From Bacteriovorax sp. (GTDB taxonomy: Bacteria; Bdellovibrionota; Bacteriovoracia; Bacteriovoracales; Bacteriovoracaceae), in assembly GCA_041662705.1 (NCBI GenBank), contig JBAZRY010000003.1, positions 15,532-79,531 on the forward strand: a DNA stretch of 64,000 bases. The letters run 5' to 3'. Below the pieces are notes generated by a model that was not told the origin of the DNA, made no database searches, and saw only the letters and a list, made by a program, of their open reading frames with translations. A program made the translations under genes and the position numbers. Below, in pieces: positions 44,688 to 63,128 of the stretch (position 1 is the first letter of the stretch; each line of letters begins with the position of its first letter).

Positions 44688-47390
44688 TTATTGATCTATT
44701 ATTTCAATGATTCCAGTTTCACCATTCATTTTGATTTTCATGCCGCTTTTTAATTTTTTTGTAAGACCTTTTATCCCGACTACTGTTGGAAGACCCATTT
44801 CTCTGGCAACAATGGCAGAATGAGATAATAGTCCGCCACGCTCAACCAGTAACCCGCTTACAGAAGGGTATAATGGAATCCAGCCCGGATCGGTGCGGTC
44901 AGTGACAAGGATTTCTCCGTTTAAGACCATATCGTCTTCGGGGCCCATGATTACTTTTACCACTCCGGTAATATCGCCCGGGGAGCAAGGTATTCCTCTC
45001 ATCTGGTTTTCTTTTAGAGTAGATTCATCAAATACGACAACTTCTTCTTTTTCTGTATGTTGATTGTGCCAATAAACCGGGCCTCTGGTGGTAAATCTGG
45101 AGGCCGGTTCAATGTTTTTGTAACTTTCGTATTCTTTTCTCCTGACTTCTATGACGGCGCGAAGATTTTGAATTGTGTTAGTTCCTTCAAAAGCTCCCTT
45201 CAATTCCTGAAATGATAAATAAAACACATCTTCTTTTTTATCAATGATATTTGATTTGGTGAAATCTTCACCAATGGCATAGAACATGGATCTTACGACT
45301 CCGTAAATTCTTGTGCGGCAAAAGCGTGTATTCTCCCTGTTCATCACGGCTTTACGGGCGTGATTGAGTGACCATTTATAAATAATTTTTTTTATTCCGC
45401 TGATATTTTTTTCAAGAAGAGCTTCAGCATTTTGACGAATATCTTTTTCTCGTTTTTCATATTCATGCAGATCCGTTTGTCCGCAATTGATGAGGTTCTT
45501 TAAAAATACAAAAAACAATCCCGGCTCCTGATGAAGATCCTTTTGTTCAAGCTTCATTTCACTCATGCATCTGAACCCGTAGCGATCAATATAATCCAGA
45601 ACCATTTTGTAGAATTCGCTTTGATTGTTTTGATTGAGGGCCTCCAGGCAGTGCTCGTTTGGAGTAGTAAGAATGAGAGCTTTTAAAGTTTCATTCTTTG
45701 AAACAATCCCGGAGAGTTCAATGAGTCTTTTCGTCGGCTCAGCCGATTCAAGATTCCCGTTACCTGCGAGTAGATCATTATAAAATGAATCGCCCAGGTG
45801 AGAGAGCCATTTGTTGGTGAGCTTTTTGAAAGTCCCGTAATGAACCATACATAGAGTGTCGTTAATAATGGGAGCGTGCCATTTTCTTAGAATTTCCGCT
45901 TCCAGTTTTTGGAAATGTTCGTAGACCTTATCTGCACTAAGTCTGGAATAATCAATTTTTCTGAACTTATTGTAAACGATATGAAATTCTTTTTGAAAAT
46001 CATCGACGACATTTTGGATGTTCCAATGGAAATACAAAAACTTCATTCCTGTAATACAATGGCGGACAAAGGCCCCTGGCCCATTTTGGAAATCCGATGG
46101 CTTCACCCGCTCAGCAACTTCGTCCTGTATGGCTTCATTGGTGCCCATCATGGTTTCCATAAAAGCACGATTATTTTTGTAGCCGGGAAGAATGGATATT
46201 AATTTATACCAGTTCAATAAATTATAGTAAACGCGGCCGTAAAAAAGCCCCAGCATATTGTTTAAATATTGATCCATTTCTTTAATACTTTTTTGCGGAA
46301 CTAGTAAAACTTCGCAAAATTGAATATAAACCTGATGATAAACATAATGTGCAAAACCAAATGTCAGCGGCATTGTTAATCCGCCATAACTTTCAACAAT
46401 ATTGGAATTGTCCCAGATATAAAGAATTCCCCGGTTGTTTTCAGTTTCAGTTGTGACGGGACGTGATTGAAGTATAAAAAGTTCATTATTTTTTATGGCC
46501 CATTCAACATCCTGTGGTCTTCCATAGAAGAGTTCTATATTTTTGGCTATTGAATATAGCTTTTTTAGATGTTCTGCGTTTAATGATTCTGCTAATGCCT
46601 CCGTTGTATCAACTTTTACTTCAAGACATTCCTGTTTTTTTATATCGCGAATTAACTTTTTTGATTTTTCGACAATGCTCTTTTCAATGATCGCCCCATC
46701 TGCTTTGGTTAAAACAAACGTATCTGCATCCAGTAAGCCTGAGACCAGCCCTTCGCCAACACCATACACAGAATTAATAAAAATCTGGCCATTGTTTCCG
46801 TTTACTGGATTACACGTAAAAAAAACACCGCTGACATCGGGATCGACCATTTCCTGAAGGATGACGGATACTCGAATATTTTTAAGCTCAAGTTTATTGA
46901 TAGTGCGGTAATGAAGAGAGCGCTCCGAGTAGGCGCTTGCCCAGCATTCCTTGATGGATTTAAGGGTATGAGCGAAATCCGAAATATACAGGTAGCTGCT
47001 TAGTTGACCAGCAAAAGAATGCAGGGCCGAGTCTTCATCATGAGCGGAGGACCGTACTGAGATGAGAGGTCTGTTTAATTCTTTATAAATATCTTCAATC
47101 TGCGATAGTAATGTTGGTTTGAAAGGTGTCTCAACAATTTTCGCCCGGATTTTTTCCGAAACTTCCAGAAGAGAGAGGTGCTGATCTAAAAAAATATGCT
47201 CAATATAATCATTGATTTTTGTTGTTTCTTTAAATAGTTCAAAAAAATGCGGGGGGAGCGTAACGAAGGGGGGAACGTTTACTCCATTTGTGCTGAGAAG
47301 AAATAGATTAAATCCTTTCCCGCCGCTTTCTTTTTTAGCAAAATGATAAGTACTCTTATTGGTTACAGTCAAAAGACGATTTTCTTTCAT
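44688..47390 (-). CDS. RPH/PigC-type PEP-utilizer dikinase (ATP-grasp, substrate-binding domain, swivelling His domain)
   Basis: GGKG, VRSSA..ED....SFAG, QEMV, GEGLVSG, DVEWA, LQSRPVT; C-terminal TDPGW..L...GGLLSHSAIVARE; no PEP-binding TIM barrel. Confidence 0.85.
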   Translation of the reverse strand: MKENRLLTVTNKSTYHFAKKESGGKGFNLFLLSTNGVNVPPFVTLPPHFFELFKETTKINDYIEHIFLDQHLSLLEVSEKIRAKIVETPFKPTLLSQIEDIYKELNRPLISVRSSAHDEDSALHSFAGQLSSYLYISDFAHTLKSIKECWASAYSERSLHYRTINKLELKNIRVSVILQEMVDPDVSGVFFTCNPVNGNNGQIFINSVYGVGEGLVSGLLDADTFVLTKADGAIIEKSIVEKSKKLIRDIKKQECLEVKVDTTEALAESLNAEHLKKLYSIAKNIELFYGRPQDVEWAIKNNELFILQSRPVTTETENNRGILYIWDNSNIVESYGGLTMPLTFGFAHYVYHQVYIQFCEVLLVPQKSIKEMDQYLNNMLGLFYGRVYYNLLNWYKLISILPGYKNNRAFMETMMGTNEAIQDEVAERVKPSDFQNGPGAFVRHCITGMKFLYFHWNIQNVVDDFQKEFHIVYNKFRKIDYSRLSADKVYEHFQKLEAEILRKWHAPIINDTLCMVHYGTFKKLTNKWLSHLGDSFYNDLLAGNGNLESAEPTKRLIELSGIVSKNETLKALILTTPNEHCLEALNQNNQSEFYKMVLDYIDRYGFRCMSEMKLEQKDLHQEPGLFFVFLKNLINCGQTDLHEYEKREKDIRQNAEALLEKNISGIKKIIYKWSLNHARKAVMNRENTRFCRTRIYGVVRSMFYAIGEDFTKSNIIDKKEDVFYLSFQELKGAFEGTNTIQNLRAVIEVRRKEYESYKNIEPASRFTTRGPVYWHNQHTEKEEVVVFDESTLKENQMRGIPCSPGDITGVVKVIMGPEDDMVLNGEILVTDRTDPGWIPLYPSVSGLLVERGGLLSHSAIVAREMGLPTVVGIKGLTKKLKSGMKIKMNGETGIIEIIDQ

Positions 47391-47424
47391 TCAGGGATTT
47401 CCTTTAAAATAAACTGTTACGGTA

Positions 47425-47451
47425 GTATCGGTAAAAAATTCAATAACTTTG
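47425..47451 (-). promoter_or_regulatory. Putative sigma28 (FliA) promoter for the dikinase
   Basis: Minus strand CAAAGTTA-N11-ACCGATAC (6/8 + 6/8 to TAAAGTTT-N11-GCCGATAA), 34 nt upstream of the ATG. Confidence 0.5.
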
Positions 47452-47486
47452 ATGATTTACTCACTTTATTTCATGGTTGATGTTTT

Positions 47487-47515
47487 TTGTCGGAAACATG
47501 CCCGGCAATTATAAA
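47487..47515 (+). promoter_or_regulatory. Putative sigma70 promoter for the 47555-56087 operon
   Basis: TTGTCG-N17-TATAAA, 39 nt upstream of the ATG. Confidence 0.45.
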
Positions 47516-47554
47516 ATTTTAACAAAAGTTTTTGATTTTCATTAAACTAAGGAT

Positions 47555-48964
47555 ATGAATTGTATAGATTTGTTTGCGCAGAAGTCTCTTGAAATGCAAG
47601 ATCAGCTTGCTTTTGTCTCGCCGTTTGGCGCTGACCATTCGTTTTCAGACTTAAGGGAAAGGGTTGTGAGGGTGCAAAGCTCCTTGCGCAGCCTGGGCTT
47701 TAAGAAAAACGATGCTGTCTTAATGGCGATTGATGTTTCAATAGATCTTTATTCGACAGTCATTGCGGTGCTTGGTCTAGGTGGAACAATTGTGCTTGTC
47801 GAACCATGGATGCCTGTTAAAAAAATTTCAGAAGTAATCAATCTGGTTTTGCCAAAAATTTTTGTCAGTTCGATGATCGGCAATTTATGGGGACTAAGAG
47901 TCTCTGAAATCAGACAAATTCCTTTTTGGGTGACTCCAGCAAAGCTTTTAAGTGGAAAAAATGCTGAATTAATTTGTGAACCTGTGAACGAAAAATCACC
48001 GGGAGTGATAACTTTTACGACAGGAACTAGCGGAACTCCAAAAGGGGTCGTCCGAGAACACGGGTATATGTTAAGGCAATTTGATGTTTTGAAAAACTCT
48101 CTTCATTTTGATGCCTATCAGGGAAGTGATCTTTGCATTTTTGCCAACTGGACTCTTTTGAATCTTGCGCAGGGAAAGCCCACCGTTTTTTTTCCTTCTA
48201 AATGGTCCAAAAGGAATTTCGATTGGCTTCAAACTGCCTCAATAAAATATAATATTCAGACTCTTTCATCAGGTCCTGCTTTTGCGAAAATGCTTAACTC
48301 GCACGTTAAATTAGAGACGCTGAAGGATATTCATATTGGCGGTGCTCTGACACCATGTTCTCTTTTTGATGAACTTTTTAGAAATTACCCTGAATCTCAA
48401 ATTCAGCAAGTCTATGGATCAAGTGAAGTTGAACCCGTTTGCCTGGTGGATGCCCGATTGTCCGTAAAAAAGTCGCGCGAAAAAAATTATTACCATTCTT
48501 TATATCTTGGAAAGCCGATTGATAAGATTCAATTTGAAAATAAAGAGGATGGCATGTGGGTAACCGGCCCACATGTCTGTTCATTTTATTTGAATAATCA
48601 AAAGGAAAATGAATTAAACAAGCGGCTCGATAATGAAAAGCGAATCTGGCATTTTATGGGAGATAGAATTACCATCGATGAGCAAGAAGACTGGTGGTAT
48701 AGCGGGCGCTCTCAGTTAAGTGCTGAAGATTTTTTTCTGGAGCAGAATTTATACGTATTTCTAGGCCATGATAATGCTTTCTTTTATCGCGATTCAACCA
48801 ACAAAATGCTATTGATTGGCGAAAAACTGAAATCACGCCAGGCGATTTTAAAGCAGAAGTTCCCTGTCATTGACAGAATCATCGAAGCAAAAATTATTAA
48901 AGATATCAGGCACCGGGCCAGAATCGACCGCAAGGCTGTTCTGGCAAAGTTAAAATTAGGATAA
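47555..48964 (+). CDS. AMP-binding (ANL) ligase, OleC-like
   Basis: TFTTGTSGTPKG, YGSSEVEP, WHFMGD, DIRHRARIDR. Confidence 0.8.
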   Translation: MNCIDLFAQKSLEMQDQLAFVSPFGADHSFSDLRERVVRVQSSLRSLGFKKNDAVLMAIDVSIDLYSTVIAVLGLGGTIVLVEPWMPVKKISEVINLVLPKIFVSSMIGNLWGLRVSEIRQIPFWVTPAKLLSGKNAELICEPVNEKSPGVITFTTGTSGTPKGVVREHGYMLRQFDVLKNSLHFDAYQGSDLCIFANWTLLNLAQGKPTVFFPSKWSKRNFDWLQTASIKYNIQTLSSGPAFAKMLNSHVKLETLKDIHIGGALTPCSLFDELFRNYPESQIQQVYGSSEVEPVCLVDARLSVKKSREKNYYHSLYLGKPIDKIQFENKEDGMWVTGPHVCSFYLNNQKENELNKRLDNEKRIWHFMGDRITIDEQEDWWYSGRSQLSAEDFFLEQNLYVFLGHDNAFFYRDSTNKMLLIGEKLKSRQAILKQKFPVIDRIIEAKIIKDIRHRARIDRKAVLAKLKLG

Positions 48965-48968
48965 AACT

Positions 48969-49832
48969 ATGCGAAACTGGCTTACATTTTTTAGAGAAAG
49001 AACACCACTAGCTAGCTATTTGCTCATTACTTTTGGTCCTGCGCTTTCTGGTTATGCGCTGGCAGACAGTCCCAAATATGTTTCCTTGACCCTGGCCTTT
49101 ACCGGGTTTTTTCTTTTCTTTCTTGTTTTAAGAATGATGGATGAGTACAAGGATTACGATAAAGATGTATTGGCCCATCCAGGAAGACCATTGCCTAGAG
49201 GACTTATCCCTCTGTCTCAGTTTAAAATGGCCATATCACTGGGAATGATTGTACTGATTCTTTTTAATATTCTTTTATTGATATGCGGGTTTAAAATTTC
49301 TTTTTATCTTTACTCGCTGGTGATAATTCATTTGTGGCTAATGTATAAAGAATTCTATATTGCGGAATGGATTAACGCCAGACCAATTCTGTACGCAGTA
49401 ACTCATCAGCTTATTTTAGTTACTCTTTGTTTGTATTGTATTTCAATCTATTACAGATCAGAGTTTACGGGGTTTAAACTCATTGATTTCGCCTATTCTT
49501 ACTCTGTGTTGTTTGCCTTTTTTAGCTATGAAGTTTGCAGAAAACTTGACCCCAAGGCTCACCCTGTGTTGAAGACTTATCTTTCTGTCTATGGAATAGG
49601 TGGAGTTTTGAAAATTGTCTCAACTCTGCTTGTACTCCATGTTTGTATGATAAGATTTCTTTTTCTGAACAATAACAACCAGTATTATTTTTATATTCCT
49701 ATCGCTTTACTTTTTGGATCTTTGGTTGCTTTGAGCGCTCAAAAAATTAAATTTAAAATGGTAGAATTGATGGCCACTTTAAATCTTTTAGTTTTTTTAT
49801 ATTCGGGGATTTTATATGTCATTGCATATTGA
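48969..49832 (+). CDS. UbiA-superfamily integral membrane transferase
   Basis: RMMDEYKDYDKD...HPGRPLPRG aspartate-rich motif; multiple TMs; YEVCRK second motif. Confidence 0.8.
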   Translation: MRNWLTFFRERTPLASYLLITFGPALSGYALADSPKYVSLTLAFTGFFLFFLVLRMMDEYKDYDKDVLAHPGRPLPRGLIPLSQFKMAISLGMIVLILFNILLLICGFKISFYLYSLVIIHLWLMYKEFYIAEWINARPILYAVTHQLILVTLCLYCISIYYRSEFTGFKLIDFAYSYSVLFAFFSYEVCRKLDPKAHPVLKTYLSVYGIGGVLKIVSTLLVLHVCMIRFLFLNNNNQYYFYIPIALLFGSLVALSAQKIKFKMVELMATLNLLVFLYSGILYVIAY

Positions 49833-50841
49833 ACTTTATAGTAAAACTTCGGACAAACAAAAATTTATTCAGGAATTTGCGCAATTTCCGAGTATTCTCT
49901 TTGCTGAAAATCAGAACGTAAAAAAAATTCCCTTGGAGCTTGAAGCACTTTACTTCAAATTGCATGCACTAACCCATGATTTTATCCTGATCAAAGACAG
50001 TGGGAAAACAGTCTTGCGCTCAATGATTTGCCTGACGCCTTTTCAGGGACTGGCCTATTTTGGGCTTTTGGATTTTGATTATAAATCTGCCAATGTGTTG
50101 CCCATTTTAAATGAGTTTAAGGCTTTCATTTTAAGCTGGTGTCAGGGCAATGGTGCTGCAAAAATATATGGACCAATCAATTTTTCTACATGGCTTCCTT
50201 ACAGGCTTTTAAGCTCTGTGGAAGGTGGTCCGATGTTTTCCTTTGAGCCTGACCGTCCTCTTGAATACACAAATTCTCTAAAGCAAGTGGGATTTTCAAC
50301 CAACCAGTTGTTTTCATCCAAGGGTTACGAAGAACTTGATAATATTATTAATCTTTCCAAAAATGACTATGATAAAGCTTTGGGGCTTGGTTATACATTT
50401 GAATTTTTTCCGAAAGAATTAAATCTTGAAGATATGAAAGATCTGCATCGTCTTTCGCTTAAAATTTTTGATGATAATTATCTGGCCACTCCAATTGATT
50501 TTGAAACTTTCCGAACGCTTTATGCAACCCAGTCTAAAAAAGACGACTTCACCCTTTCGCTTTTTATAAAATCAGCTGCAGGGGAGAGAATAGGGTATTT
50601 CATAAATTTTTTAGAACATGACTATTGTGTAATCAAAACAATTGGTATTGATAAGCAGTACAGGGGCAGCGGTCTATCAAATGGCTCTATGTATTTGTCT
50701 CTTAAAAAAGCGGCAGATATGGGGATTCATCGCATGGTTGCGGCCATGGTAAAAGAAGGCGCCCAGAGCGAATCCTATGGCCGAAAAATGAAGCATATGT
50801 GGACTCATTTGTACGAGATCCTTGAACTTAGCGTTTCCTAG
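49816..50841 (+). CDS. YghO-like GNAT-fold acyltransferase
   Basis: YGPINFSTW..YR, EP..P..Y...L...GF, KTIGIDKQYRGSGL acyl-CoA motif A. Confidence 0.65.
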   Translation: MSLHIELYSKTSDKQKFIQEFAQFPSILFAENQNVKKIPLELEALYFKLHALTHDFILIKDSGKTVLRSMICLTPFQGLAYFGLLDFDYKSANVLPILNEFKAFILSWCQGNGAAKIYGPINFSTWLPYRLLSSVEGGPMFSFEPDRPLEYTNSLKQVGFSTNQLFSSKGYEELDNIINLSKNDYDKALGLGYTFEFFPKELNLEDMKDLHRLSLKIFDDNYLATPIDFETFRTLYATQSKKDDFTLSLFIKSAAGERIGYFINFLEHDYCVIKTIGIDKQYRGSGLSNGSMYLSLKKAADMGIHRMVAAMVKEGAQSESYGRKMKHMWTHLYEILELSVS

Positions 50842-50950
50842 CTGATCAAAATGGCAATATAACCTATATTCTTTACACACCTGGTAGCGAGTTTTTCCAA
50901 TCTTGTTACACTTTTAGCTGTTAAAAATTTCTCTGGGAACCAGGAATTCT

Positions 50951-51910
50951 ATGCAAAATATTTCTGTGTATTTAAATCAGAGGGCCTCAAATGGGGCCAA
51001 CGACTGGCAAGAGCAGATTAACAATGCTCTTTTCAGGAGTAATGTCGAGTATCAGATGCCAAAAGATCTCAATGAGCTTTATGGGCAACTCAATCTGGAC
51101 GTTGAAAATAAGGTTGATGCTGTTTTGTCGGTAGGAGGAGATGGCACTGTCAATACTATCATTCAAAGGTTGGCAGGAACGGATATAAGCTTGCTGGTTG
51201 TTCCCGGTGGAACTGCCAATGATTTTGCAAGAGTACTGGGTTCAAATACGAATATTAAACGCATTACTCAGACCATAAGACAGAACGTAAAAAAGAAAAT
51301 CGATCTTATCAGTATAAACGGAAAATTCATGGCAACTAACGGAGGTATTGGATTTGCTGCCGATGTCGCCAGGGAAATAAACGATCTTCGCGCAAGCTTT
51401 CCCCAGTTTAAAAGTTTCATGAAGCTTTCCGGAAAAAGTGTTTATTCATTGTTTCTTGCAAAAAAGTTGCTTAACAAAGAAATTAAGAGCCATAAATTTA
51501 ATATTCATGCTGATAATTTCTCTGAAACAGTTTTTTCTCCTCTCATTTTAATTAATAATCAACCGGCGCTTGGTGGAGACTTTACTGTTGCACCTCGCAC
51601 TTCACATACGGATGGAACTTTTAATGTCACTATATTTAAACACCAAAACAGGCTGGAACTGGTCCAGTGTATTCTGAGAATTTTAAACGGGAATTATCCA
51701 GTTAATGATACAAACCTGATCAGTTTTGAAACGAGCGCCGCCAAAATAGATCTCTTAGACGAGAATGCTATTTCCTTTTTTGGAGATGGTGAAATATTGA
51801 ATCAGGCCCAAAGCTGGAATATTGTCTGCCATCCTGCCTTTCTTTCTGTTTTTTCTCCTAAAGACCAAAAAGATATGGTAAATCTTTGCACTCAAGTCTC
51901 ACTAATGTAA
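50951..51910 (+). CDS. Diacylglycerol/lipid kinase family (DAGK/YegS)
   Basis: N..AS, VGGDGTVN, PGGTANDFAR, DGE. Confidence 0.88.
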   Translation: MQNISVYLNQRASNGANDWQEQINNALFRSNVEYQMPKDLNELYGQLNLDVENKVDAVLSVGGDGTVNTIIQRLAGTDISLLVVPGGTANDFARVLGSNTNIKRITQTIRQNVKKKIDLISINGKFMATNGGIGFAADVAREINDLRASFPQFKSFMKLSGKSVYSLFLAKKLLNKEIKSHKFNIHADNFSETVFSPLILINNQPALGGDFTVAPRTSHTDGTFNVTIFKHQNRLELVQCILRILNGNYPVNDTNLISFETSAAKIDLLDENAISFFGDGEILNQAQSWNIVCHPAFLSVFSPKDQKDMVNLCTQVSLM

Positions 51911-51924
51911 GACGATAAACCATT

Positions 51925-52929
51925 ATGAAAATATTTATCACCGGTGCAACAGGATTTCTTGGAAATTACCTTGTAAACATTCTGAGCTCAGAATTTGAAA
52001 CAATATATGTACTTACTCGTAATGCCGATTTTTCAGGCTTTAACCATTTGGCCAATGTAAAGCTTGTCAAAGGGGATATTACCAGTCTGTCCATTATTGA
52101 AAGCGACATAGAAAAAGAAGAAGTCGTAAGAGAATGCAGCTACGCCATCCATGCTGCCGCTATCTATGATATGAAAGCAAGTCACGCCGAGTGCTATATG
52201 CAAAATGTGCTGGGGACCCAGAACACTCTGCGGCTAATCAAGAAAATGAAAAATTTAAAGGCATTTTATTATATTTCAACCATTGCAGTAGGAGATGACC
52301 AGACATTTTTTCTTGAAGAAGATCATTTTCCATCCAGGAGAAAATTTAATGATTCATACTCAGAAACTAAGTATCATGCAGAAAGATTAGTCAGAGAAGC
52401 AACACTTATTGCTCCGATCAGAATAATCCGTCCGGGGATTATTGTAGGGAACTCTGAGACAGGGGAAATGAACAAAGTCGACGGCCCATACTATTTTATT
52501 GAGGCGATGAAAAAGTACTCCAGACTTTTAAGAGCGATGCCATTCATGCCACTGGCCCATAATCCAAGAACGAAAATCCCGCTTATTCCAGTGGATCATT
52601 GCGCCCATTATATTTCTTTGTTGATTAAAAGGGATGATTATAATTCAAAGGTTAAAACATATCATCTGATCAGTCATGAGATTCCAAGTGTAAAAGAATT
52701 TCTTGAAGACCTCAATCAGGCCTTTGGCATAAAAACAATTTATCTCCCCACAGGAAAGAATCTGGTGAATAATTCCCTATTGAAACTCTTTGGTATTCCC
52801 AAAGAGGTAGTACCATTCATGTTTTCAAGACTCTCTTACGATAAGACCCATACAATAGAAGAAGTTCCTGAGTTGAAAAGCAGTACGTACAGTACTTTTA
52901 AAAAATCGCTCTTTGGGAATTGTTTCTAA
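51925..52929 (+). CDS. Extended SDR, fatty acyl/aldehyde reductase-like (NAD_binding_4)
   Basis: ITGATGFLG, HAAAIYD, YIST, YSETK, RPGIIVGNSETGEMNKVDGPYYF. Confidence 0.75.
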   Translation: MKIFITGATGFLGNYLVNILSSEFETIYVLTRNADFSGFNHLANVKLVKGDITSLSIIESDIEKEEVVRECSYAIHAAAIYDMKASHAECYMQNVLGTQNTLRLIKKMKNLKAFYYISTIAVGDDQTFFLEEDHFPSRRKFNDSYSETKYHAERLVREATLIAPIRIIRPGIIVGNSETGEMNKVDGPYYFIEAMKKYSRLLRAMPFMPLAHNPRTKIPLIPVDHCAHYISLLIKRDDYNSKVKTYHLISHEIPSVKEFLEDLNQAFGIKTIYLPTGKNLVNNSLLKLFGIPKEVVPFMFSRLSYDKTHTIEEVPELKSSTYSTFKKSLFGNCF

Positions 52930-55006: not shown

Positions 55007-56087
55007 GAAATATTTTACAGGACTTAATTATACATTAGGCAACGAGGATACCAGTGTTGAAATTGCTTTGGTTTCTCATTATAAGCCAAAAAATATCTTT
55101 GCTGTCTGCGGCAGTGGTGGAAGATCGCTTTCGCTGGCCTCTGAAAATATTGAAGAGCTTACTCTTGCAGATTTATCAAATGAACAAATCTGTCTGGCAA
55201 AACTTCGTGAAGCTACCTATAAACAATTGTCTTATGAGGATTTTTTACGATTCTGGGGATATTTTCCTTTTGGTAATGATCAAAATTCAGAAGCTCGGAA
55301 GGAGTTGTTTAACCGACTCCAGCTTGAAGCAGCTGTTAAGGAAATGTTCTCTCGAATCTTTCAGGAATTAAATTATTCATCACTCCTTTATCTGGGAAAA
55401 TGGGAAAGAACTTTTCTTATTCTGGCAAAAATCAACCGGCGGCTTCTTGGACGTGATTTCGATCGCATTTTAAAGTTTGAAAATTTAGATGAGCAGAGAA
55501 AATATTATCAGGAAAAATTTCCACATAATCGTTGGAAAATGGTTCTATTTCTTTTGGGAAATAAAGCAATATTTAATGCTCTTTTATATAAAGGGGATTT
55601 TATTGAAAAAAATTCAGCTGACACTCATTTTCAGTATTATCACAAGGCCTTCGAAAAATTATTTACCTATGATTTAGCTCAGAAAAGTTTTTTCCTTCAT
55701 CTTTGCTTTTACGGGAAAATTAATTCTTCTGCAGGCAATCCAGTAGAGGCCAGCGCTTTAGTTCATCACAGAATTAACGGCTCAAAGGCAAATTATCACT
55801 ATGTTACTGAGGATCTGATTAAGCATTTGAGCAGCGGTACAAAACGCTATGACTTTCTTTCTTTAAGCGATGTTCCTTCCTATTTTAGGGGAGACCTGGA
55901 AGTTGATTTTATGCAAAAAATCCGGCCTTCTCTCATTCCCGGGGCCATAGTTGTTAATCGCTATTATCTCAGAAAAGCTCATTGTAACCTGGCAGCTTTT
56001 ACGGATATTACCAAAAGGCATAGGGATTTAATCGATGCTGAAAAAGTTCAAATGTACGACATCTGCGTTTATCAATACACGCCTTAA
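54999..56087 (+). CDS. DUF3419 / BtaA-like SAM-dependent transferase
   Basis: NED..VE, CGSGGRSLSL, DLS.EQ..LA.LR, LSDV..Y, G...V.R. Confidence 0.65.
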   Translation: MTKKYFTGLNYTLGNEDTSVEIALVSHYKPKNIFAVCGSGGRSLSLASENIEELTLADLSNEQICLAKLREATYKQLSYEDFLRFWGYFPFGNDQNSEARKELFNRLQLEAAVKEMFSRIFQELNYSSLLYLGKWERTFLILAKINRRLLGRDFDRILKFENLDEQRKYYQEKFPHNRWKMVLFLLGNKAIFNALLYKGDFIEKNSADTHFQYYHKAFEKLFTYDLAQKSFFLHLCFYGKINSSAGNPVEASALVHHRINGSKANYHYVTEDLIKHLSSGTKRYDFLSLSDVPSYFRGDLEVDFMQKIRPSLIPGAIVVNRYYLRKAHCNLAAFTDITKRHRDLIDAEKVQMYDICVYQYTP

Positions 56088-56222: not shown

Positions 56223-56381
56223 ATGAAAGATTTAATCTTTATTTTCATATTATCTGCGACAGTCGCAACAGCAGGTCTATTAAAGGACGAAAATAATATT
56301 CAGGATACGAAAGGTGTGACAAGTACTCAAAAATACCTCTCTTTCAATAAAACATCAGCTATAAAGCCAGTAATAAATTAG
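56223..56381 (+). CDS. Possible 52-aa exported small protein
   Basis: Not in ORF track; AAAGGCG upstream; MKDLIFIFILSATVATAGLLKDENNIQDTKGVTSTQKYLSFNKTSAIKPVIN; overlaps the 3' end of ynbB. Confidence 0.35.
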   Translation: MKDLIFIFILSATVATAGLLKDENNIQDTKGVTSTQKYLSFNKTSAIKPVIN

Positions 56382-57299
56382 ATAGAAGAAGACCAGATTA
56401 GAGAATATCAAAGAGTCCATTCTGTCTAAAATTCCCCCGTGCCCTGGAATCAAATCCCCCATATCTTTAATTTTTAAATCTCTTTTAATGGCCGAAATAT
56501 TCAGATCGCCAAAGAAGCCGGCAATGGCCAGGAGTCCAGACAGCATCAAAACCTGAATGGTTGTTAATGGTAAAAGATCTCTAAAGAAATACCCAAACAT
56601 GATTGAACCGAGCACCCCGCCTACGAGTCCTGCCCATGTTTTATTAGGAGAAATAAGAGGGGAGATCTTTCGTTTACCGAATAATTTTCCGGAAATAAAT
56701 TGAGACACATCATTGAGCTGAGTAATGAGGATCAAAAAGAAAATCATACCAGGAGCGCCTTCTTTTAAGGCCTCGACATTTGGTAGAGAGGCAATATACG
56801 AAATATGGGATAAGGAAAAAACAGTCAGCATCAGGGCCCAATGAAGCTGGCTGAACGTCTTTATACTCTCTTCACTCAAGTCTTCAAGTATCGATCTAAA
56901 AGGCAAAAGAACGAGCATTCCAACCGGAATAAAGGTGAGGAAAGCAATAAAGTATCTTGAATAGGCAAAATAATATTGAAAGGGAATGGCCACAAAAGCA
57001 ATGAACAAAGTTCTTCTATGACTTTTATTAAAGTTGAGCTTGCTAGTTAGCTCTCTGAGCGAAATGGCGGAAATTATGGCCATTGAAATAAACAAAACTT
57101 CACGTCTGGCACCCACCATGATTATGACGATCAGGAAGATGATCCACCAGGAATTCACTCTTTGTTTAAGGACGGCTAGAAAATCCCGCGGCCAGAAATA
57201 ATCCCACCCATAGAATAGAAGAGTAAAAAACATAATTAATGAGAACGTGGCAATAACGGAAGATTGAGTTTGTTCGCCGATAGAAAGCATAGATTGCAT
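56355..57299 (-). CDS. ynbB: Phosphatidate cytidylyltransferase-like (YnbB type)
   Basis: RVNSWW, NDVSQF..GK.FG, ISPNKTWAG, GDL..SA.KR...KD.G..IPGHGGILDRMDS; ATG 57299 after GAGGA. Confidence 0.85.
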   Translation of the reverse strand: MQSMLSIGEQTQSSVIATFSLIMFFTLLFYGWDYFWPRDFLAVLKQRVNSWWIIFLIVIIMVGARREVLFISMAIISAISLRELTSKLNFNKSHRRTLFIAFVAIPFQYYFAYSRYFIAFLTFIPVGMLVLLPFRSILEDLSEESIKTFSQLHWALMLTVFSLSHISYIASLPNVEALKEGAPGMIFFLILITQLNDVSQFISGKLFGKRKISPLISPNKTWAGLVGGVLGSIMFGYFFRDLLPLTTIQVLMLSGLLAIAGFFGDLNISAIKRDLKIKDMGDLIPGHGGILDRMDSLIFSNLVFFYLIYYWLYS

Positions 57300-57366
57300 T
57301 TTATTCCTCAATATTCTGTTTTATCTGTCGAAGAGTCCTTAAATTCAATTATATACGGAGAACTCA

Positions 57367-59124
57367 ATGAATAAAAGAGAAGAAAAAAAATCACACTTTT
57401 CAACCTTTGATGGTGAAAAACTAGTTTATCGTTCATGGACGCCAAGTCGTGATTCAGTTGGTGAGAAAAAAGCCCTTATTGTCATTCATCGCGGACATGA
57501 GCATTCCGGACGATTGATTGAACTCATTGAAGGAATTAATCAGCCAGAATGCTGGGCATTTGGGTACGATTCTCGCGGGCACGGTGAATCCGGCGGCCCC
57601 CGCGGATATGCACCAAGCTTTTCTCATATAGTGAAAGATCTTGATACTTTTGTTAAATTTATCAGCAAAGAATACCAGATAAAAATTGAAAATATTTTTA
57701 TCGTTGCCAATAGCGTGGGTGCAGTCGTTGCCAGCGCCTGGGTGCATGACTACGCTCCCAATATAAGAGGAATGGCCCTTGCCGCTCCGGCTTTTGAAAT
57801 TAAACTTTATGTCCCGCTTGCTTTGTCTGGTTGTCGTCTTCTGGATGCCGTTAAACATCCGGCGTATATTTCAAGCTATGTAAAATCAAAATTCTTAACT
57901 CATGACCCGGTTGAGCAAAAAAAATACGATGAAGATAAATTAATCACGCCGCAAATTGCAGTGAATATTCTGGTAGGCCTTCATGACACTTCAGAAAGAG
58001 TCGTTAAAGACGCCGGGGCCATTCATGTGCCAACGATCGTTTTCTCGGCCGGAAGTGACTGGGTAGTAAAGAATGGTCCCCAGAAAACATTTTTTGATAA
58101 TTTAAGTTCAAAGAAAAAAGAATTTATTGTGCTAGATGGATTTTATCATGGTGTTCTTTATGAAAAAGACCGTCAACTTCCTTTTGGGCATATTCATCGT
58201 TTTATCAACGAATGTTTTAATGCAAGTGTAGCAACAGTAGACATGATTGCTGCTGACAAACAAGGCTATACATACAATGAATATAAAACAATTCAGGCCG
58301 GTGATGTAAATATTTTTAACAAAATTAATTATGCTATCCAGGTGCTTTCAATGAAAACACTCGGAATGCTGTCTGTCGGAATTCGCATTGGTTATAAATA
58401 CGGCTTTGATTCAGGTATATCTCTTGACCATGTTTATAAAAATAAGGCACGAGGGGAAATGCTAATCGGAAAAATTATTGATTTTTTCTATATCAATGCC
58501 GTAGGATGGAAAGGAATTCGTGCACGTCGTGTTCACATGAGAGAGTCGCTTAATTACTGTATCGATGAACTCATTAAAGAAGGCAAGCCAGTTCGTATTA
58601 TGGATATTGGATCCGGTCCAGGCAGATACTTGCTTGAAACAGCTAAGAAATATGAAAAAAATGACATAAAAGTTTTATTGCGAGATTACTCCGACAGCAA
58701 TATTAAAGAAGCTCAGGAAATTGCCAAAGATATTGGTTGCACCAACGCAGAATTTAAGGTTGCCGATGCATTTGATCCTAATACTTATAAAGAGCAGGCA
58801 TTTAAGCCAAATATTTTAATTGTGTCAGGGCTCTTCGAGTTATTTCCAAGCAATGAAACTGTTTTAAAAGCTGTAAATGGGGCAACATCCATATTGGAAA
58901 AAGATGGATTTATCGTTTATACCGGTCAACCTTGGCACCCTCAACTTGAGATGATTGCTCATACACTTCCCAACAGAGAAGGTGTTAACTGGGTTATGAG
59001 ACGAAGAACGCAGCTGGAAATTGATCAGATTTTTGCTGTGAACGGAGCAGATAAGCTTGATATGAAAATTGATCAATGGGGAATTTTTACTGTAGCGACA
59101 GCAAAATTTAAAAAGAGTGCATAG
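57367..59124 (+). CDS. ynbC: Bifunctional alpha/beta hydrolase - class I SAM methyltransferase (YnbC type)
   Basis: HRGHEHSGR, RGHGES.G.RG, ANSVGA...WVHDYAP, GFYH; DIGSGPGRY, SGLFELF, YTGQPWHPQLE.IA, WVMRRRTQ.E, GIFTV. Confidence 0.9.
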   Translation: MNKREEKKSHFSTFDGEKLVYRSWTPSRDSVGEKKALIVIHRGHEHSGRLIELIEGINQPECWAFGYDSRGHGESGGPRGYAPSFSHIVKDLDTFVKFISKEYQIKIENIFIVANSVGAVVASAWVHDYAPNIRGMALAAPAFEIKLYVPLALSGCRLLDAVKHPAYISSYVKSKFLTHDPVEQKKYDEDKLITPQIAVNILVGLHDTSERVVKDAGAIHVPTIVFSAGSDWVVKNGPQKTFFDNLSSKKKEFIVLDGFYHGVLYEKDRQLPFGHIHRFINECFNASVATVDMIAADKQGYTYNEYKTIQAGDVNIFNKINYAIQVLSMKTLGMLSVGIRIGYKYGFDSGISLDHVYKNKARGEMLIGKIIDFFYINAVGWKGIRARRVHMRESLNYCIDELIKEGKPVRIMDIGSGPGRYLLETAKKYEKNDIKVLLRDYSDSNIKEAQEIAKDIGCTNAEFKVADAFDPNTYKEQAFKPNILIVSGLFELFPSNETVLKAVNGATSILEKDGFIVYTGQPWHPQLEMIAHTLPNREGVNWVMRRRTQLEIDQIFAVNGADKLDMKIDQWGIFTVATAKFKKSA

Positions 59125-59126
59125 TT

Positions 59127-60128
59127 ATGCCAAATACAAAAAATAATAAAGATCTGAAAGTGTATTTTGACCTGATGCTTGCCAACGGTGCATCTTCTCT
59201 TTACAGAATTGTCCAGGAAATGGAAATTCTTAATGCATACAGGCCGGGTGAGATCTTCTCAGCAACAGATCTGGCTGAGAAGCATCAGTTTAAAGTCGGA
59301 CCGACCAAGGTATTACTTGATTCACTTTCAACAATGGGTCTTGTGGTAAAAAAAGGCGAGAGCTACTCAATTTCAAATGTTATGCATCTTCTTAAAGGGA
59401 ATTATCAGAATTTAAGTTCTGAGTACTGGGCGCATTTGCCCACATTGCTCAAGTCCGGAACGCCCTTTAAAAAAATGGATGCCGTTGAAAATAGTGAAAA
59501 GGAATATCAGGTTCAGGTAAAATCGCTTGAGTGGATGATGGGGCCTTGTGCTGAACTAACCGCTCAGATGGTGTCTGAACTTTATCCGGAAAAGGAAACC
59601 AAAAATGCTTCTATCAATGTGCTGGATGTTGGGGCCGGCTCAGGCGTATGGGGATTTAATTTTCTTTATGCCAATCCCAATGCAACTTGTACCCTGGCCG
59701 ACTGGCCCGCGGTACTAAAAGTAGCTAGAGATACTTCGGAGAGAAATAAGATTTCAAGTCGAGTGAGTTATATCGAGGGGAATTTTCATCAGACTAATTT
59801 TGGTGAGCCACGGTTTGATTACGCGACTTTGGGAAATGTTACCCATATCCAGACACCTGACGAAAATAAAAATATTTTCAAAAAAATATATAATGCTCTT
59901 TTGCCAGGAGGCAGGCTCATCATACTCGATGCCTATGGCAAAGTAGAAGAAGGAGCAATGGCACGTGCTCTTTATCAGATGGGGCTTACGATCAGAACGG
60001 TACAGGGCAAGGTATATCAGCCTGAGGAACTGGAGCCATGGTTAAAAGAAGCAGGTTTTACCTCTTTTGAATTTCATTCAATTGATGTTGTACCTCATTC
60101 AATGGGAATGTTCATTGCAAAAAAATAA
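59127..60128 (+). CDS. SAM-dependent O-methyltransferase (dimerisation domain + Methyltransf_2)
   Basis: VLDVGAGSGVW, ADWPAVL, GNF, NV.H, L.PGG.L.I.D. Confidence 0.8.
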   Translation: MPNTKNNKDLKVYFDLMLANGASSLYRIVQEMEILNAYRPGEIFSATDLAEKHQFKVGPTKVLLDSLSTMGLVVKKGESYSISNVMHLLKGNYQNLSSEYWAHLPTLLKSGTPFKKMDAVENSEKEYQVQVKSLEWMMGPCAELTAQMVSELYPEKETKNASINVLDVGAGSGVWGFNFLYANPNATCTLADWPAVLKVARDTSERNKISSRVSYIEGNFHQTNFGEPRFDYATLGNVTHIQTPDENKNIFKKIYNALLPGGRLIILDAYGKVEEGAMARALYQMGLTIRTVQGKVYQPEELEPWLKEAGFTSFEFHSIDVVPHSMGMFIAKK

Positions 60129-60488
60129 ATGAAAGCACTTGATTCACAGGCGATTCCGATTCTTCTTATCTTAGTGGCCGCATTTATCGGGGCATGTGCT
60201 CAGTATTTTTTCAAAGTTGGATCACTGAAAATTATTGAAGTGCCAATTTATAAAAATTGGTTTTTCTTAGCAGGGCTCGTTTCTTTTTTCTGGGTGCTGG
60301 TTCTGATAACCATGTCCTTTCGCTTCGGCGGGATGATGATGGTTGTCTATCCTGCCTATGGAACAACTTATATATGGGCGCTCCTTATTTCACATTATTT
60401 TGACAAAGCACCGCTCAATTATGTTCAGATCAGTGGTATATTCTGTATTATTTTAGGAATCGGTCTTGTGAGTTATCAGAAAAATTAA
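60129..60488 (+). CDS. SMR/EamA (DMT) 4-TM transporter, ArnE/ArnF-flippase-like
   Basis: 119 aa, four hydrophobic helices, Q.F.K.G, YP.Y...YIW..L.S. Confidence 0.65.
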   Translation: MKALDSQAIPILLILVAAFIGACAQYFFKVGSLKIIEVPIYKNWFFLAGLVSFFWVLVLITMSFRFGGMMMVVYPAYGTTYIWALLISHYFDKAPLNYVQISGIFCIILGIGLVSYQKN

Positions 60489-61072
60489 GTCAGTGCCTTT
60501 CTTATCCTATTATAGATAGTGACTAACAGCAGAACTGCCACGGCGGAAATAATGATAGTGTAAATTCTTTCCTGAACAACGCCAAAACAAATCATTATTG
60601 CCATAATACTAAAAACAAAAGCACGGTCGCTCTTTCCCATGGGGCCAGCGAATTGTCGCGGTCTTGAGATATGAAAGGCCGCCAATCCAGTTACTTCTGT
60701 CAGAGCGGAAAAAAAAATAATGAATAACAAAAGATAAGTGCTGATAAAAGAAAAACGCAAAAATGCAAAATAGAGGAATCCATCTGAAACAACATCAGTC
60801 ACTTCATTTAGTATGGCCCCCATGGGCGTTTTTAAATCATGTTCTTTTGCCAGCATCCCGTCGATTGCGTTAAGTGCCATTCTCACGAAAAAAAAGAAAG
60901 GAAGAATAATAAACATTTCGGTTTCTGCCATAAACAAAAAAAGTCCTACGGCGACAGAAAGAAGGCATGTGACCAGAGTTATCTGGTTGGGAGTTATGCC
61001 CATTTTCCAGATGGCTACGACAAATGGCCTTAACATGTTTTGAAACTTTGGCTTCAGATCATAAATGGTCAT
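60485..61072 (-). CDS. ynbA: CDP-alcohol phosphatidyltransferase (YnbA type)
   Basis: YDLKPKFQ..LRP, TPNQIT, RMALNAIDGMLA, GAILNE..DV.SD, GPMGKSDRA. Confidence 0.9.
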   Translation of the reverse strand: MTIYDLKPKFQNMLRPFVVAIWKMGITPNQITLVTCLLSVAVGLFLFMAETEMFIILPFFFFVRMALNAIDGMLAKEHDLKTPMGAILNEVTDVVSDGFLYFAFLRFSFISTYLLLFIIFFSALTEVTGLAAFHISRPRQFAGPMGKSDRAFVFSIMAIMICFGVVQERIYTIIISAVAVLLLVTIYNRIRKALT

Positions 61073-61740
61073 GTAATGTCCTTTGGAAACTTTTGATTGA
61101 CCGAAAAATTGCTCATGACCTGTATTTGAGATCCGCTTTGTATGGTCGTACCCGGACCCATTTTTGTGAATGCGCCGATGAAGCAGTTGCTCCCAATTTT
61201 TATTTTCTTAATATAGACAAAAAATCTGCCGTTCTTAACTCTCAACAAGTGGGATGACATATAAGTATTGTGACCGAAAATGACAAAATCCCCTACATCC
61301 ATAAGACTCCTGTCATTTACGATTGTTCCTGGTGTCCAGAAAACATTTTTTCCAATTTTTGAGCCCCATAAACGCAGCCACCCGCTATAAAGTCCTGGCA
61401 AATAGAATAAGAGTCGCTCTAGTTGCGGGAAGACAAGATAAATTTGCTGAACCCGCAACGAAAAAAGCCAGGGAGAAAAACTTTTTTCATCGAGCCCAAT
61501 ATATACACCGCCTTCCTTTATTGGATAGATGCCAAGGACAATACGCTGGATTAAAAGCGGAAGGAAATAGGGTAGGAGTAAAAATGCCGCAAAAAAATAT
61601 AAGTTTTTAGTGAGTACAAATTGAGCAAAACAAGTGATCATAATTGAAAAAAATATTAATGGAAAAAAATGCTGTAAGCGTTTAAATAAAAAATTTAGGA
61701 TATGATCTTTATAAGTTGTCATATTAAAATTATAATTCAT
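61069..61740 (-). CDS. Membrane-anchored hexapeptide-repeat (LbH) acyltransferase-like protein
   Basis: N-terminal TMs; WLRLWGSKIG, hexapeptide repeats (VGDFVIFG, IGSNCFIG). Confidence 0.7.
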   Translation of the reverse strand: MNYNFNMTTYKDHILNFLFKRLQHFFPLIFFSIMITCFAQFVLTKNLYFFAAFLLLPYFLPLLIQRIVLGIYPIKEGGVYIGLDEKSFSPWLFSLRVQQIYLVFPQLERLLFYLPGLYSGWLRLWGSKIGKNVFWTPGTIVNDRSLMDVGDFVIFGHNTYMSSHLLRVKNGRFFVYIKKIKIGSNCFIGAFTKMGPGTTIQSGSQIQVMSNFSVNQKFPKDIT

Positions 61741-61766
61741 ATTTCAAAATAGAAAATGAGGAATCA

Positions 61767-63128
61767 TTGAGTTCAACCATAAAAAACATGAAAGACAAAA
61801 GAAAAGCGGTAACACCGCCCAGGGATTTTTTCTGGGGTGCGATCACCGGGCATGGCTTAAGTCTTCGTCAGGGCAGATTGAATTATATGTATGCCTGCCT
61901 AAAACAGTATGGTGATTTCATCATCATGTTTTTGGGTAAAAAAAGAACGATACTTGTAAATGATCCAGATGGGCTGAAGTATGTTCTCTTGGATAACAGT
62001 AAAAATTATCCCAAAAATACACCCGGCTATCAAAAAGTGGCCGAAGTTCTCGGGCAGGGAGTTTTTACAGACGTCGGAGAGGAATGGAAAAAAGGCAGGA
62101 GAGTTATTCAGCCTACATTTAATCCGAGCAAATTTGATCACTATTATGAACTGGTTTTTGATGAATCAAGTAAGTCAGTTGAAAAAATGCGGGCAGAATA
62201 TTCGACCAATAAGACCTTTAATATCAATTCAATTTCCACCGCATATGCCTTGCATGTAATTGGCAGAAGTCTGTTCAACCAGACCCTTGCCGAAAGTTTT
62301 CAGGTTATCAGCAGGAATCTCTCACATTTGATAGATCTTACTGAAAAGAAAATGACTTATGTCACGCCATTTAAAACACCTGCAAAAATGAAGCTCGAAA
62401 AAGATTTTAATGAAACGCTTGCTTTGCTTGATGGGGAAATAGAAAAAATTATTGAGAAAGAAAAAACAAAACCAATGAATCCGAAAGAGAATATGATTCA
62501 TGCTTTGCTTGTCTCGCCTCTTAATTTTACAGGAAAAAAAATACTTTCTCAGGTTAAAACCATGATTTTTGCCGGTCATGAAACGACGGCAAATGTTATC
62601 ACCTGGAGCTTTTATTTCCTTGCGCTTCATCCAAAATGGCAGGAGAAAATATTCAACGAATTCAGGGAAAAAAAATTCGTTATAGGAAAAGAAGAAGACC
62701 TCGAACAATTTATTTATTTAAATTTGTTTTTAAAAGAAGTTCTAAGAATGCGTCCGCCGGCATGGTCTTTTGGGAGAGTGGCCATATCGCATGACAAAAT
62801 TCATGGTGAAGATATTTTTCCTGGCGATCTGATTTCAATTTCTCCTTTTCTCATTCATCATCATCCGGACTATTGGGAAAATCCTGAAGACTTCAATCCT
62901 GAGCGCTTTATCAATCCGCCTGCTGATTATACTTTTATTCCCTTTGGCCTCGGACCAAGAGTGTGTATGGGGGAGCGTCTTGCAAACTTAGAAATGTGCA
63001 TGTTCTTACTCCATGTCATTAAAAATTTCTCATTTATATTTTCTGAGCGGACTCAAAATGTAAAGATGAATGCTCAGGTATCTTTGCGACCAAATCAGGA
63101 TATTTACCTTGATATGATCTTAAGATAG
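61767..63128 (+). CDS. Cytochrome P450
   Basis: AGHETTA I-helix, EVLR, FNPERF, PFGLGPRVCMG heme-Cys motif; TTG after GAGGA. Confidence 0.95.
   Translation: MSSTIKNMKDKRKAVTPPRDFFWGAITGHGLSLRQGRLNYMYACLKQYGDFIIMFLGKKRTILVNDPDGLKYVLLDNSKNYPKNTPGYQKVAEVLGQGVFTDVGEEWKKGRRVIQPTFNPSKFDHYYELVFDESSKSVEKMRAEYSTNKTFNINSISTAYALHVIGRSLFNQTLAESFQVISRNLSHLIDLTEKKMTYVTPFKTPAKMKLEKDFNETLALLDGEIEKIIEKEKTKPMNPKENMIHALLVSPLNFTGKKILSQVKTMIFAGHETTANVITWSFYFLALHPKWQEKIFNEFREKKFVIGKEEDLEQFIYLNLFLKEVLRMRPPAWSFGRVAISHDKIHGEDIFPGDLISISPFLIHHHPDYWENPEDFNPERFINPPADYTFIPFGLGPRVCMGERLANLEMCMFLLHVIKNFSFIFSERTQNVKMNAQVSLRPNQDIYLDMILR

Follow-up and report, generated by a model that had tools for sequence, protein, structure and literature searches.

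Do the 15 contiguous genes at positions 44688-63128 of this Bacteriovorax sp. stretch (64,000 nucleotides of contig JBAZRY010000003.1, assembly GCA_041662705.1, here called the window) encode a single membrane-lipid pathway, as a first-pass annotation made from the sequence alone had proposed? Its basic description, that is, 15 mostly lipid-related genes in six alternating strand blocks (-, + ×7, -, + ×3, - ×2, +), was confirmed by the open reading frame (ORF) list and by Pfam and NCBIfam scans, and nearly every family assignment held as well, the weak cases by means of family profiles. The single pathway fared differently, since a comparison with related loci split the set. We lean slightly toward reading the interval as two independently inherited envelope-lipid clusters, which would be neighbors only in this Bacteriovorax sub-lineage.

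By its sequence, the organism belongs to the Bacteriovoracaceae and is Bacteriovorax-like. The contig occurs in groundwater metagenomes, and the G+C content is even across the whole region (ca. 38% in the window). Domains were called with Pfam and NCBIfam scans of the window ORFs at 25675-64000, with family profiles, hhalign, and Foldseek for the harder proteins. For the comparison, we collected 80 species-representative loci around homologues of gene G7 (labeled L001 onward), mapped the window proteins onto all of them, and grouped every ORF in the 80 loci into families to compare synteny. Co-occurrence was counted in the 46 loci that extend for 8 kb or more to either side of G7. The genes are listed here under the two proposed clusters.

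Cluster I, G1-G8, 44688-56087: eight genes, conserved across Bacteriovoracales
G1, 44688-47390, minus strand: Rph/PigC-type ATP-dependent dikinase (Pfam, NCBIfam)
G2, 47555-48964, plus strand: stand-alone adenylate-forming (ANL) ligase without a carrier domain (AMP-binding, 6.8e-27)
G3, 48969-49832, plus strand: divergent UbiA-superfamily integral membrane transferase (family profile, motif)
G4, 49816-50841, plus strand: YghO-like two-domain GNAT-fold N-acyltransferase (family profile)
G5, 50951-51910, plus strand: soluble DAGK/YegS-family lipid kinase (DAGK_cat, 1.5e-18; YegS_C)
G6, 51925-52929, plus strand: NAD(P)H thioester reductase of the "male sterility"/nonribosomal peptide synthetase (NRPS) R-domain type (NAD_binding_4, 7.9e-38)
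G7, 52952-55006, plus strand: novel two-lobed N-terminal domain of ca. 305 amino acids (aa) plus an AAR/PigE-N-type Cys-dependent acyl-thioester reductase (NCBIfam, Foldseek)
G8, 54987-56087, plus strand: DUF3419 (BtaA-like) putative S-adenosylmethionine (SAM)-dependent 3-amino-3-carboxypropyl transferase (DUF3419, PF11899, 2.5e-27)
Cluster II, G9-G15, 56355-63128: seven genes, a relative of E. coli ynbABC
G9, 56355-57311, minus strand: YnbB-like CdsA-family cytidylyltransferase (CTP_transf_1, 2.8e-61)
G10, 57367-59124, plus strand: YnbC-like alpha/beta hydrolase plus Methyltransf_20 fusion (Hydrolase_4 and Methyltransf_20, Pfam)
G11, 59127-60128, plus strand: class I SAM O-methyltransferase (Methyltransf_2, 7.8e-15)
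G12, 60129-60488, plus strand: small membrane protein with 3-4 transmembrane segments, weakly DMT/SMR-like (hydropathy)
G13, 60485-61072, minus strand: YnbA-like CDP-alcohol phosphatidyltransferase (CDP-OH_P_transf, 1.3e-9)
G14, 61069-61740, minus strand: membrane-anchored left-handed beta-helix (hexapeptide) acyl/acetyltransferase (Hexapep, 1.2e-6)
G15, 61767-63128, plus strand: cytochrome P450 (p450, 2.4e-77)

The two sets of genes behaved very differently across the 46 flanked loci. The cluster I genes were present in ca. 87 to 98% of them (G5 and G6 in 45 each, G8 in 43, G1 in 42, G2 in 40, and either G4 or a formyltransferase in 41), with G3 found as its own gene in 32 and fused to G2 in five further loci, while G9 to G14 occurred in only 3. 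Counting the window, cluster II adjoined cluster I in only 5 of 81 loci (the window, L001, L003, L004, and L045). In Bacteriovorax sp. HI3, all seven genes G9-G15 are colinear at 56 to 77% identity, flanked by chemotaxis genes and TonB/TldD genes, with no G1-G8 gene within 10 kb. The P450 gene G15 belongs to this ynb-type unit, given that it is colinear in the HI3 copy standing apart from cluster I; the P450s found near cluster I in other lineages are only 24 to 29% identical to it. The nearest relatives also mark the junction. In L002 and L005 (G7 77 to 85% identical), G8 is followed directly by a nitroreductase gene and cluster II is missing, while in the lineage of the window G9-G15 are inserted between G8 and the nitroreductase gene, which the window itself has evidently since lost.

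All 15 genes might still form one pathway, in which cluster I would provide an alcohol or its phosphate, the YnbB- and YnbA-like enzymes would carry out CDP activation and add a head group, and tailoring and flipping would follow. The contiguity of the genes, with short intergenic gaps, in the window, L001, L003, L004, and L045 fits this model, and a DAGK-type kinase could supply a cytidylyltransferase. We nonetheless consider it quite improbable. G9-G14 are missing from 43 of the 46 flanked cluster I loci, including those of the close relatives L002 and L005, the complete G9-G15 unit stands alone in HI3, and the ynbABC core is widespread, with cluster I genes absent from those ynb neighborhoods. 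As a conserved unit, the one-pathway model is already largely refuted. The arrangement is not due to chance, because synteny extends over upward of 80 other genomes, and the same synteny shows two units. The conserved unit would be smaller than originally claimed (8 genes, 44688-56087), and much better supported as a functional unit.

Across the 80 loci, the gene content of cluster I was kept and its order was reshuffled between lineages. Two orders dominated, namely, <G1 <G3 <G2 <formyltransferase >G5 >G6 >G7 >G8 and >G2 >G3 >G1 >G4 (>G8) beside G5-G6-G7. In L082 and L083, all eight genes were colinear although G7 was just 36% identical, and L084 carried all eight together with a P450 and a MacB-type ABC transporter. 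G2 and G3 were a single fused protein of 760 to 828 aa in L050, L062, L066, L072, and L079, a fusion that argues strongly for a joint function of these two proteins; we know of no such fusion to an adenylating enzyme described for characterized UbiA enzymes. Genes for LolA_like, FtsX, and ABC proteins lay between G8 and G4 in L051, L054, L056, and L059, and this export set was found beside cluster I in other loci too.

G4 and a protein with a Formyl_trans_N domain never occurred in the same locus. This mutual exclusion points to a pathway intermediate with a free amine, and G8, the sole conserved enzyme of the cluster that would clearly introduce an amine, is its likely source. In the formyltransferase flavor, G2 has an N-terminal lysophospholipase-like alpha/beta hydrolase domain. 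Since this is the commonest architecture, cluster I could be thought of as a salvage or remodeling route, turning fatty acids or polyprenols of the prey into ordinary membrane or carrier lipids by activating them with the hydrolase and the ligase, reducing them, and phosphorylating them again. The hosts live as obligate predators and feed on the lipids of their prey, and the two kinases and the UbiA-type enzyme recall the alcohol-rephosphorylation salvage routes known in plants. Such a route would, however, make the BtaA-like protein, the amine-capping enzymes, and the dedicated AAR-type fusion superfluous, the window's own G2 has no hydrolase domain, and a G7-type fusion is also found in Anaerolineales-like bacteria, there without other cluster I genes. 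On balance, salvage seems very unlikely.

The two halves of cluster I have partly separate histories. Relative to the window, L001 and L013 have G5-G8 at 59 to 86% identity and G1-G4 at only 23 to 43%, with a P450 of their own in the G1-G4 block, which suggests that half of the cluster was replaced there by a divergent version of the same genes. Given that G1-G4 were exchanged independently of G5-G8, the latter can be described as a stable core and the former as a variable partner block. One further locus, L076:8000-12067, is on a high-GC contig labeled Bacteriovoracaceae, with a composition unlike that of the window and G5-G6-G7 at 29 to 45% identity; it could reflect a binning or label error or else horizontal transfer. 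An apparent 1130-aa G7 "fusion" in this contig was rejected as an ORF-calling artifact of its high GC content.

We then considered what each protein may contribute. G1 consists of a PPDK_N ATP-grasp domain (residues 22-319), a central Rph-type domain (Rph_4th, precomputed), and a C-terminal swiveling PEP-utilizers domain (824-893) with the phospho-His motif GGLLSHSAIVAR, in which the predicted phospho-His is His857 (codon 44820-44822). NCBIfam model NF004881 matched at 1038 bits, above its cut-off, under the name "phosphoenolpyruvate synthase." A true phosphoenolpyruvate (PEP) synthase or PPDK was rejected, as PEP-utilizers_C, the TIM barrel that binds PEP or pyruvate, was not detected in G1. 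With the phospho-His motif present and the PEP-binding domain absent, G1 is best regarded as an ATP-dependent phosphoryl-transfer or activating enzyme, and the NF004881 name, which has spread to many Bacteriovoracales genomes, is probably wrong. Models for PigC, RedH, and Rph matched at ca. 1e-104 to 1e-110, all far under their cut-offs. The closest solved structure is Listeria Rph (5fbs, 1.3e-82), with which G1 shares the three-part architecture, but it reached 348 bits against an equivalog cut-off of 999, and its position within a conserved biosynthetic cluster makes a role in resistance unlikely. Cluster I could provide the first physiological role of the Rph/PigC family beyond antibiotic resistance and pigment synthesis. 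All the proteins fall into known superfamilies, and none reached the equivalog cut-off of a characterized enzyme, except for G1 with the evidently misnamed NF004881.

G2 carries a TTGTSGTPKG motif and matched the PRK09274 family of fatty-acid-CoA ligases at 3e-46, under the cut-off; its best solved relative is the adenylation domain of LgrA (1.6e-17). The name "OleC-like" given to it at first pass proved not to be specific (74 bits against a cut-off of 900). The OleABCD olefin pathway was also rejected as a whole, with OleD at 49 bits against 580 and no OleA thiolase.

G3 by itself had no Pfam match, and the NCBIfam prenyltransferase model PRK13592 was found at 1.2e-12. The earlier UbiA assignment could nevertheless be substantiated by three lines of evidence: a profile of 32 orthologues matched the archaeal DGGGP synthase structure 6m31 at 1.8e-8, an orthologue in L084 has a precomputed PF01040 UbiA match, and the first Asp-rich motif was invariant in all 32 sequences (D58-E-x-x-D62-x3-D66 ... 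R73-P-L-P-R-G). The RPLPxG segment and the polytopic topology (seven hydrophobic segments by hydropathy) are further features in common with DGGGP synthase and UbiA, and DGGGP synthase, the best solved match, is an enzyme that forms ether bonds. Similarity to UbiA is very low, however, and the second Asp-rich motif is missing; the later conserved positions are E188, R191, and K192, with no invariant Asp pair.

G4 alone gave weak GNAT Pfam matches, none of them significant, but its family profile matched GNAT structures at 2.8e-5 and E. coli YghO with an hhalign probability of 99.1% (E value, 1.7e-18), in agreement with the earlier description as a YghO-like GNAT. The kinase G5 has a GGDGT motif and scored 109 bits with TIGR00147, against a cut-off of 118.65. 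The reductase G6 has GATGFLG and YxxxK motifs, matched TIGR01746 at 3e-33, and has the terminal reductase of MxaA as its best solved relative (5e-16).

G7 probably starts at ATG 52952 rather than at TTG 52913. Its C-terminal half has a GATGSIG motif and matched the PigE N-domain at 8e-46, AAR at 1e-13, and structure 4ppm at 2.9e-28; Foldseek aligned it with the AAR fold at 2.8e-18, with a target-normalized template modeling (TM) score of 0.72 to 0.78. The predicted catalytic residue Cys624 (54782-54784) aligns with AAR Cys294, and as an internal control, the mutant structure 6jzz (C294S) shows S at the aligned position, where wild-type 6jzq has C. The reduction of a thioester to the aldehyde by the PigE N-domain is experimentally supported (PMC8341465). 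Fold, aligned catalytic Cys, and Gly-rich NAD(P) motif are shared with the cyanobacterial acyl-ACP reductase AAR, but G7 is 22% identical to it, is fused to a 305-aa N-domain, and scored 51 bits with TIGR04058 against a cut-off of 449.7. The AAR/ADO alkane pathway was rejected, given that no gene like that of its aldehyde-deformylating oxygenase (ADO) was found in the scanned window or in the loci.

The N-domain of G7 (52952-53866) gave a confident two-lobed alpha/beta model, with a predicted local distance difference test (pLDDT) value of 87, and a fold search returned weak matches at TM scores of ca. 0.4 to 0.45 (glutamate dehydrogenase, periplasmic binding proteins, and AAR itself). The family is small (194 cluster representatives in a set of 1.84 billion proteins) and includes stand-alone proteins of ca. 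300 aa from Chloroflexota, Coprothermobacter, and Wallbacteria (P0299, P0308, and P0324), which are named "quinate 5-dehydrogenase" by NCBI yet have no Pfam match. Work on cluster I could correct this widespread name and that of "phosphoenolpyruvate synthase." In an Anaerolineales-like contig (L085:5081-9846), a distant G7-type fusion, 31% identical, adjoins a short-chain dehydrogenase/reductase (SDR) gene and a 439-aa PlsC-type acyltransferase; the locus has no other cluster I genes and may be a minimal or ancestral lipid module.

G8 belongs to DUF3419, with a Pfam match above the cut-off, and one of its orthologues is named S-adenosylmethionine-diacylglycerol 3-amino-3-carboxypropyl transferase by the Joint Genome Institute (JGI). 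DUF3419 is the BTA1/BtaA domain (PMC10685587). In the BtaA/BtaB route to the betaine lipid diacylglyceryltrimethylhomoserine (DGTS), BtaA attaches the 3-amino-3-carboxypropyl group of SAM to the hydroxyl of a lipid. Unlike that system, cluster I has no BtaB N-methyltransferase, and no methyltransferase family recurs in its 80 loci. With a GNAT or a formyltransferase conserved in its place, the amine would receive an acyl or formyl group rather than the three methyl groups of DGTS.

Comparison with other known systems gave partial matches. In the myxobacterial elb ether-lipid genes, ElbD combines ligase, carrier, reductase, and PlsC-type acyltransferase modules. Cluster I resembles this system in having an adenylating enzyme, a NAD_binding_4 reductase, and, depending on the genome, an alpha/beta hydrolase, and in that an activated fatty acid would be reduced for a lipid. 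It differs in that the proteins are separate, with no carrier domain and no PlsC acyltransferase (PF01553) in the scanned window, and the AAR-type fusion, the two kinases, and the UbiA-like and BtaA-like proteins have no elb counterpart. The suggested sphingolipid head group was not supported; serine palmitoyltransferase-type enzymes define bacterial sphingolipid synthesis, and neither the window ORFs at 25675-64000 nor the families recurring in the flanks of the loci included a gene of this type. Literature searches on DUF3419, the lipids of Bacteriovorax, ynbABC, and sets of these enzyme names returned no description of either cluster. Cluster I thus appears to bring together enzyme classes that are individually known in a set that has not been described before, and the earlier remark that no characterized pathway with this set is known stood for its eight genes.

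The likeness to prodigiosin biosynthesis requires separate discussion, because it would support a different product. G1 has the architecture and the phospho-His motif of PigC, an ATP-dependent condensing enzyme, and the closest similarity of G7, in its C-terminal half, is to the N-terminal reductase domain of PigE, a thioester reductase fused to an aminotransferase. Together with the resemblance of G2 to NRPS adenylation domains and with P450, metallo-beta-lactamase-fold, and ABC-exporter accessories typical of biosynthetic gene clusters, this could indicate a diffusible specialized metabolite or signal, for example an alkaloid that a PigC-like condensation would derive from a fatty aldehyde or an amine, or else a small molecule carrying an alkyl or prenyl group. 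Although PigC and RedH match G1 at 1e-108 to 1e-110, its scores of ca. 365 to 370 bits (364.5 for PigC and 369.8 for RedH) are well below the cut-offs of 1300 and 1350, G7 has no aminotransferase domain, and the other pig genes are absent. No pyrrole, aminotransferase, polyketide synthase (PKS)/NRPS, or carrier-protein genes are present, order-wide conservation at 42 to 89% identity is more typical of a structural function, and the DAGK-type kinase and the BtaA-like, UbiA-like, and LolA-like partners all indicate lipids. A diffusible metabolite is thus unlikely, and we regard an envelope-lipid pathway as the somewhat more probable role of cluster I.

How could such a pathway proceed? The enzyme classes rest on homology, from which the order of steps and the substrates were deduced. 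First, G2 would adenylate a carboxylate, for which a fatty acid is the best candidate. An acyl thioester would then be taken up on the conserved Cys in the AAR/PigE-type half of G7 and reduced there to the aldehyde, and the R-domain-type reductase G6 would take the reduction on to the alcohol. A lipid hydroxyl would then be phosphorylated or activated by the DAGK-family kinase G5 and the Rph/PigC-type enzyme G1, followed by a diphosphate-dependent alkyl or prenyl transfer in the membrane by the UbiA-like G3, resulting in an ether-type bond. G8 would attach the SAM-derived 3-amino-3-carboxypropyl (homoserine) head group, the amine of which would be capped by the YghO-like G4 or, in the alternative flavor, by the formyltransferase. 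Where a lineage has Lol/MacB-type exporter genes within the cluster, these would finally deliver the product to the outer membrane. The product would probably be a lipid with a reduced acyl chain, which may be ether-linked, and with a homoserine-type head group capped at its nitrogen. The complete step-by-step scheme is doubtful.

The chemistry suggested at first pass stands in part. Activation, reduction, phosphorylation, UbiA-type transfer, and aminocarboxypropyl addition are the most economical reading of G1-G8, but CDP activation, head-group transfer, methylation, hydroxylation, and flipping belong to the separate ynbABC-type unit. A more specific proposal can be made, in which cluster I would be a previously unknown ether-lipid route: a fatty acid would be converted to a long-chain alcohol by G2, G7, and G6, the alcohol to an alkyl or alkenyl monophosphate and then diphosphate by G5 and G1, and this would be the alkyl donor for G3. 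With an N-acylated or N-formylated homoserine head group derived from SAM, the result would be a phosphorus-free ether aminolipid of Bacteriovoracales outer membranes. Taken as a whole, we find this proposal decidedly unlikely.

Several points weigh against these interpretations. Both types of reductase normally act on thioesters, and no acyl or peptidyl carrier protein (ACP or PCP) is encoded in the cluster. Because the closest solved relative of G2 is a domain that adenylates an amino acid, G2 may act on something other than a fatty acid. Allylic diphosphates are the usual substrates of UbiA enzymes, we know of no precedent for a saturated alkyl diphosphate as UbiA donor, and the second Asp-rich motif (DxxxD) is absent from G3. 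An AAR-type domain making 2-enals, and from them allylic diphosphate donors, was considered; the revised PigE chemistry (PMC8341465) gives it no specific support, and it was set aside as speculative. The N-domain of G7 has no assignable function, its modeled fold giving nonspecific, two-lobed Rossmann-like matches. The G1-G4 and G5-G8 halves may be less tightly coupled than a linear pathway implies. As for the division into two clusters, their adjacency here leaves room for cluster II to act on the product of cluster I.

The question has a clear biological setting. Bacteriovoracales are obligate predators, whose envelopes must fuse with or cross those of their prey, and apart from the sphingophosphonolipids of B. 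stolpii, their lipids have been little studied. Knowing what cluster I makes could uncover a lipid class not seen before, or a new way of making ether or amino lipids.

Cluster II is a member of the widespread ynb family. The likeness to ynbABC noted at first pass was borne out, since G13, G9, and G10 are homologous over their full length to E. coli YnbA (42% identity, 2e-44), YnbB (35%, 3e-53), and YnbC (42% over 582 aa, 1e-169), clustered in both genomes and here all within 56355-61072. In Bacteriovorax sp. HI3, the orthologues of G9, G11, G12, G14, and G15 are 71, 64, 69, 76, and 60% identical, respectively, with that of G12 next to ynbC. The YnbC family alone has more than 8000 homologues across phyla. 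The ynbABC core recurs in other bacteria, each time with its own accessory genes: next to ynbC, Bdellovibrio sp. HCB has a G12-like small membrane protein (42% identical to G12), E. coli has YnbD, and Nitrosococcus has a PlsC acyltransferase, a sulfotransferase, and a DSPc phosphatase. Compared with E. coli ynbABCD, cluster II has another gene order and other strands, no phosphatase domain among G9-G15 and therefore no YnbD (as in HI3), and four additions, namely, the O-methyltransferase, the small membrane protein, the hexapeptide transferase, and the P450. A ynbB knockout of E. coli, made to test a role in the biosynthesis of the glycolipid MPIase, grew like its parent (PMC6362211).

Based on these families, cluster II most likely builds a separate CDP-alcohol-derived phospholipid, which would then be methylated, hydroxylated, or acylated. 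An archaeal-type CDP-archaeol pathway was rejected, every score being far under the cut-off; the archaetidylinositol-phosphate synthase model, for instance, gave 72 bits for G13 against 180. Of the SMR flippase-like protein described at first pass, what held for G12 was a small protein with three to four transmembrane segments, while the transporter assignment reached only a sub-threshold DMT_YdcZ match (2.4e-4), and no solved relative was found. G14 has two N-terminal transmembrane segments. The extended ynbABC unit in culturable isolates such as HI3 offers a tractable way to the product of E. coli ynb.

G13 and E. coli YnbA (L081:5622-6227) share a variant of the CDP-OH signature, with Asn at the first and third acidic positions (N-x2-D-G-x2-A-K ... 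G-x3-N-x3-D in G13, where Arg is also replaced by Lys). This YnbA-type variant suggests altered metal binding or chemistry.

Outside the two clusters, the genes upstream of cluster I were housekeeping or protease genes. Directly upstream are two tandem paralogous S8 subtilases (41670-43097 and 43270-44640); the closest relatives (L002, L003, L005, L006, and L045) likewise carry an S8 gene in synteny with G1. The two subtilases are probably predation hydrolases with no relation to either cluster. A scan for promoter-like and terminator-like sites gave no excess over shuffled sequence (59 against 57 and 15 against 16, respectively). Between the convergent S8 gene and G1, there is a strong 11-bp GC-rich hairpin followed by a T tract (44654-44678), the sole convincing site of the scan, which is likely a terminator and the left boundary of cluster I. 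Further upstream, the ORFs at 29451-31610 (minus strand, 719 aa) and 38259-39545 (plus strand, 428 aa) had no Pfam match at E values of ≤1e-5. At the other end, positions 63336-64000 belong to a large family of predicted secreted or surface proteins (f13/f32). The window copy had no Pfam match; members reach ca. 1240 aa, contain repetitive Gly/Asn-rich segments, and lie downstream of cluster I in many Bacteriovorax loci.

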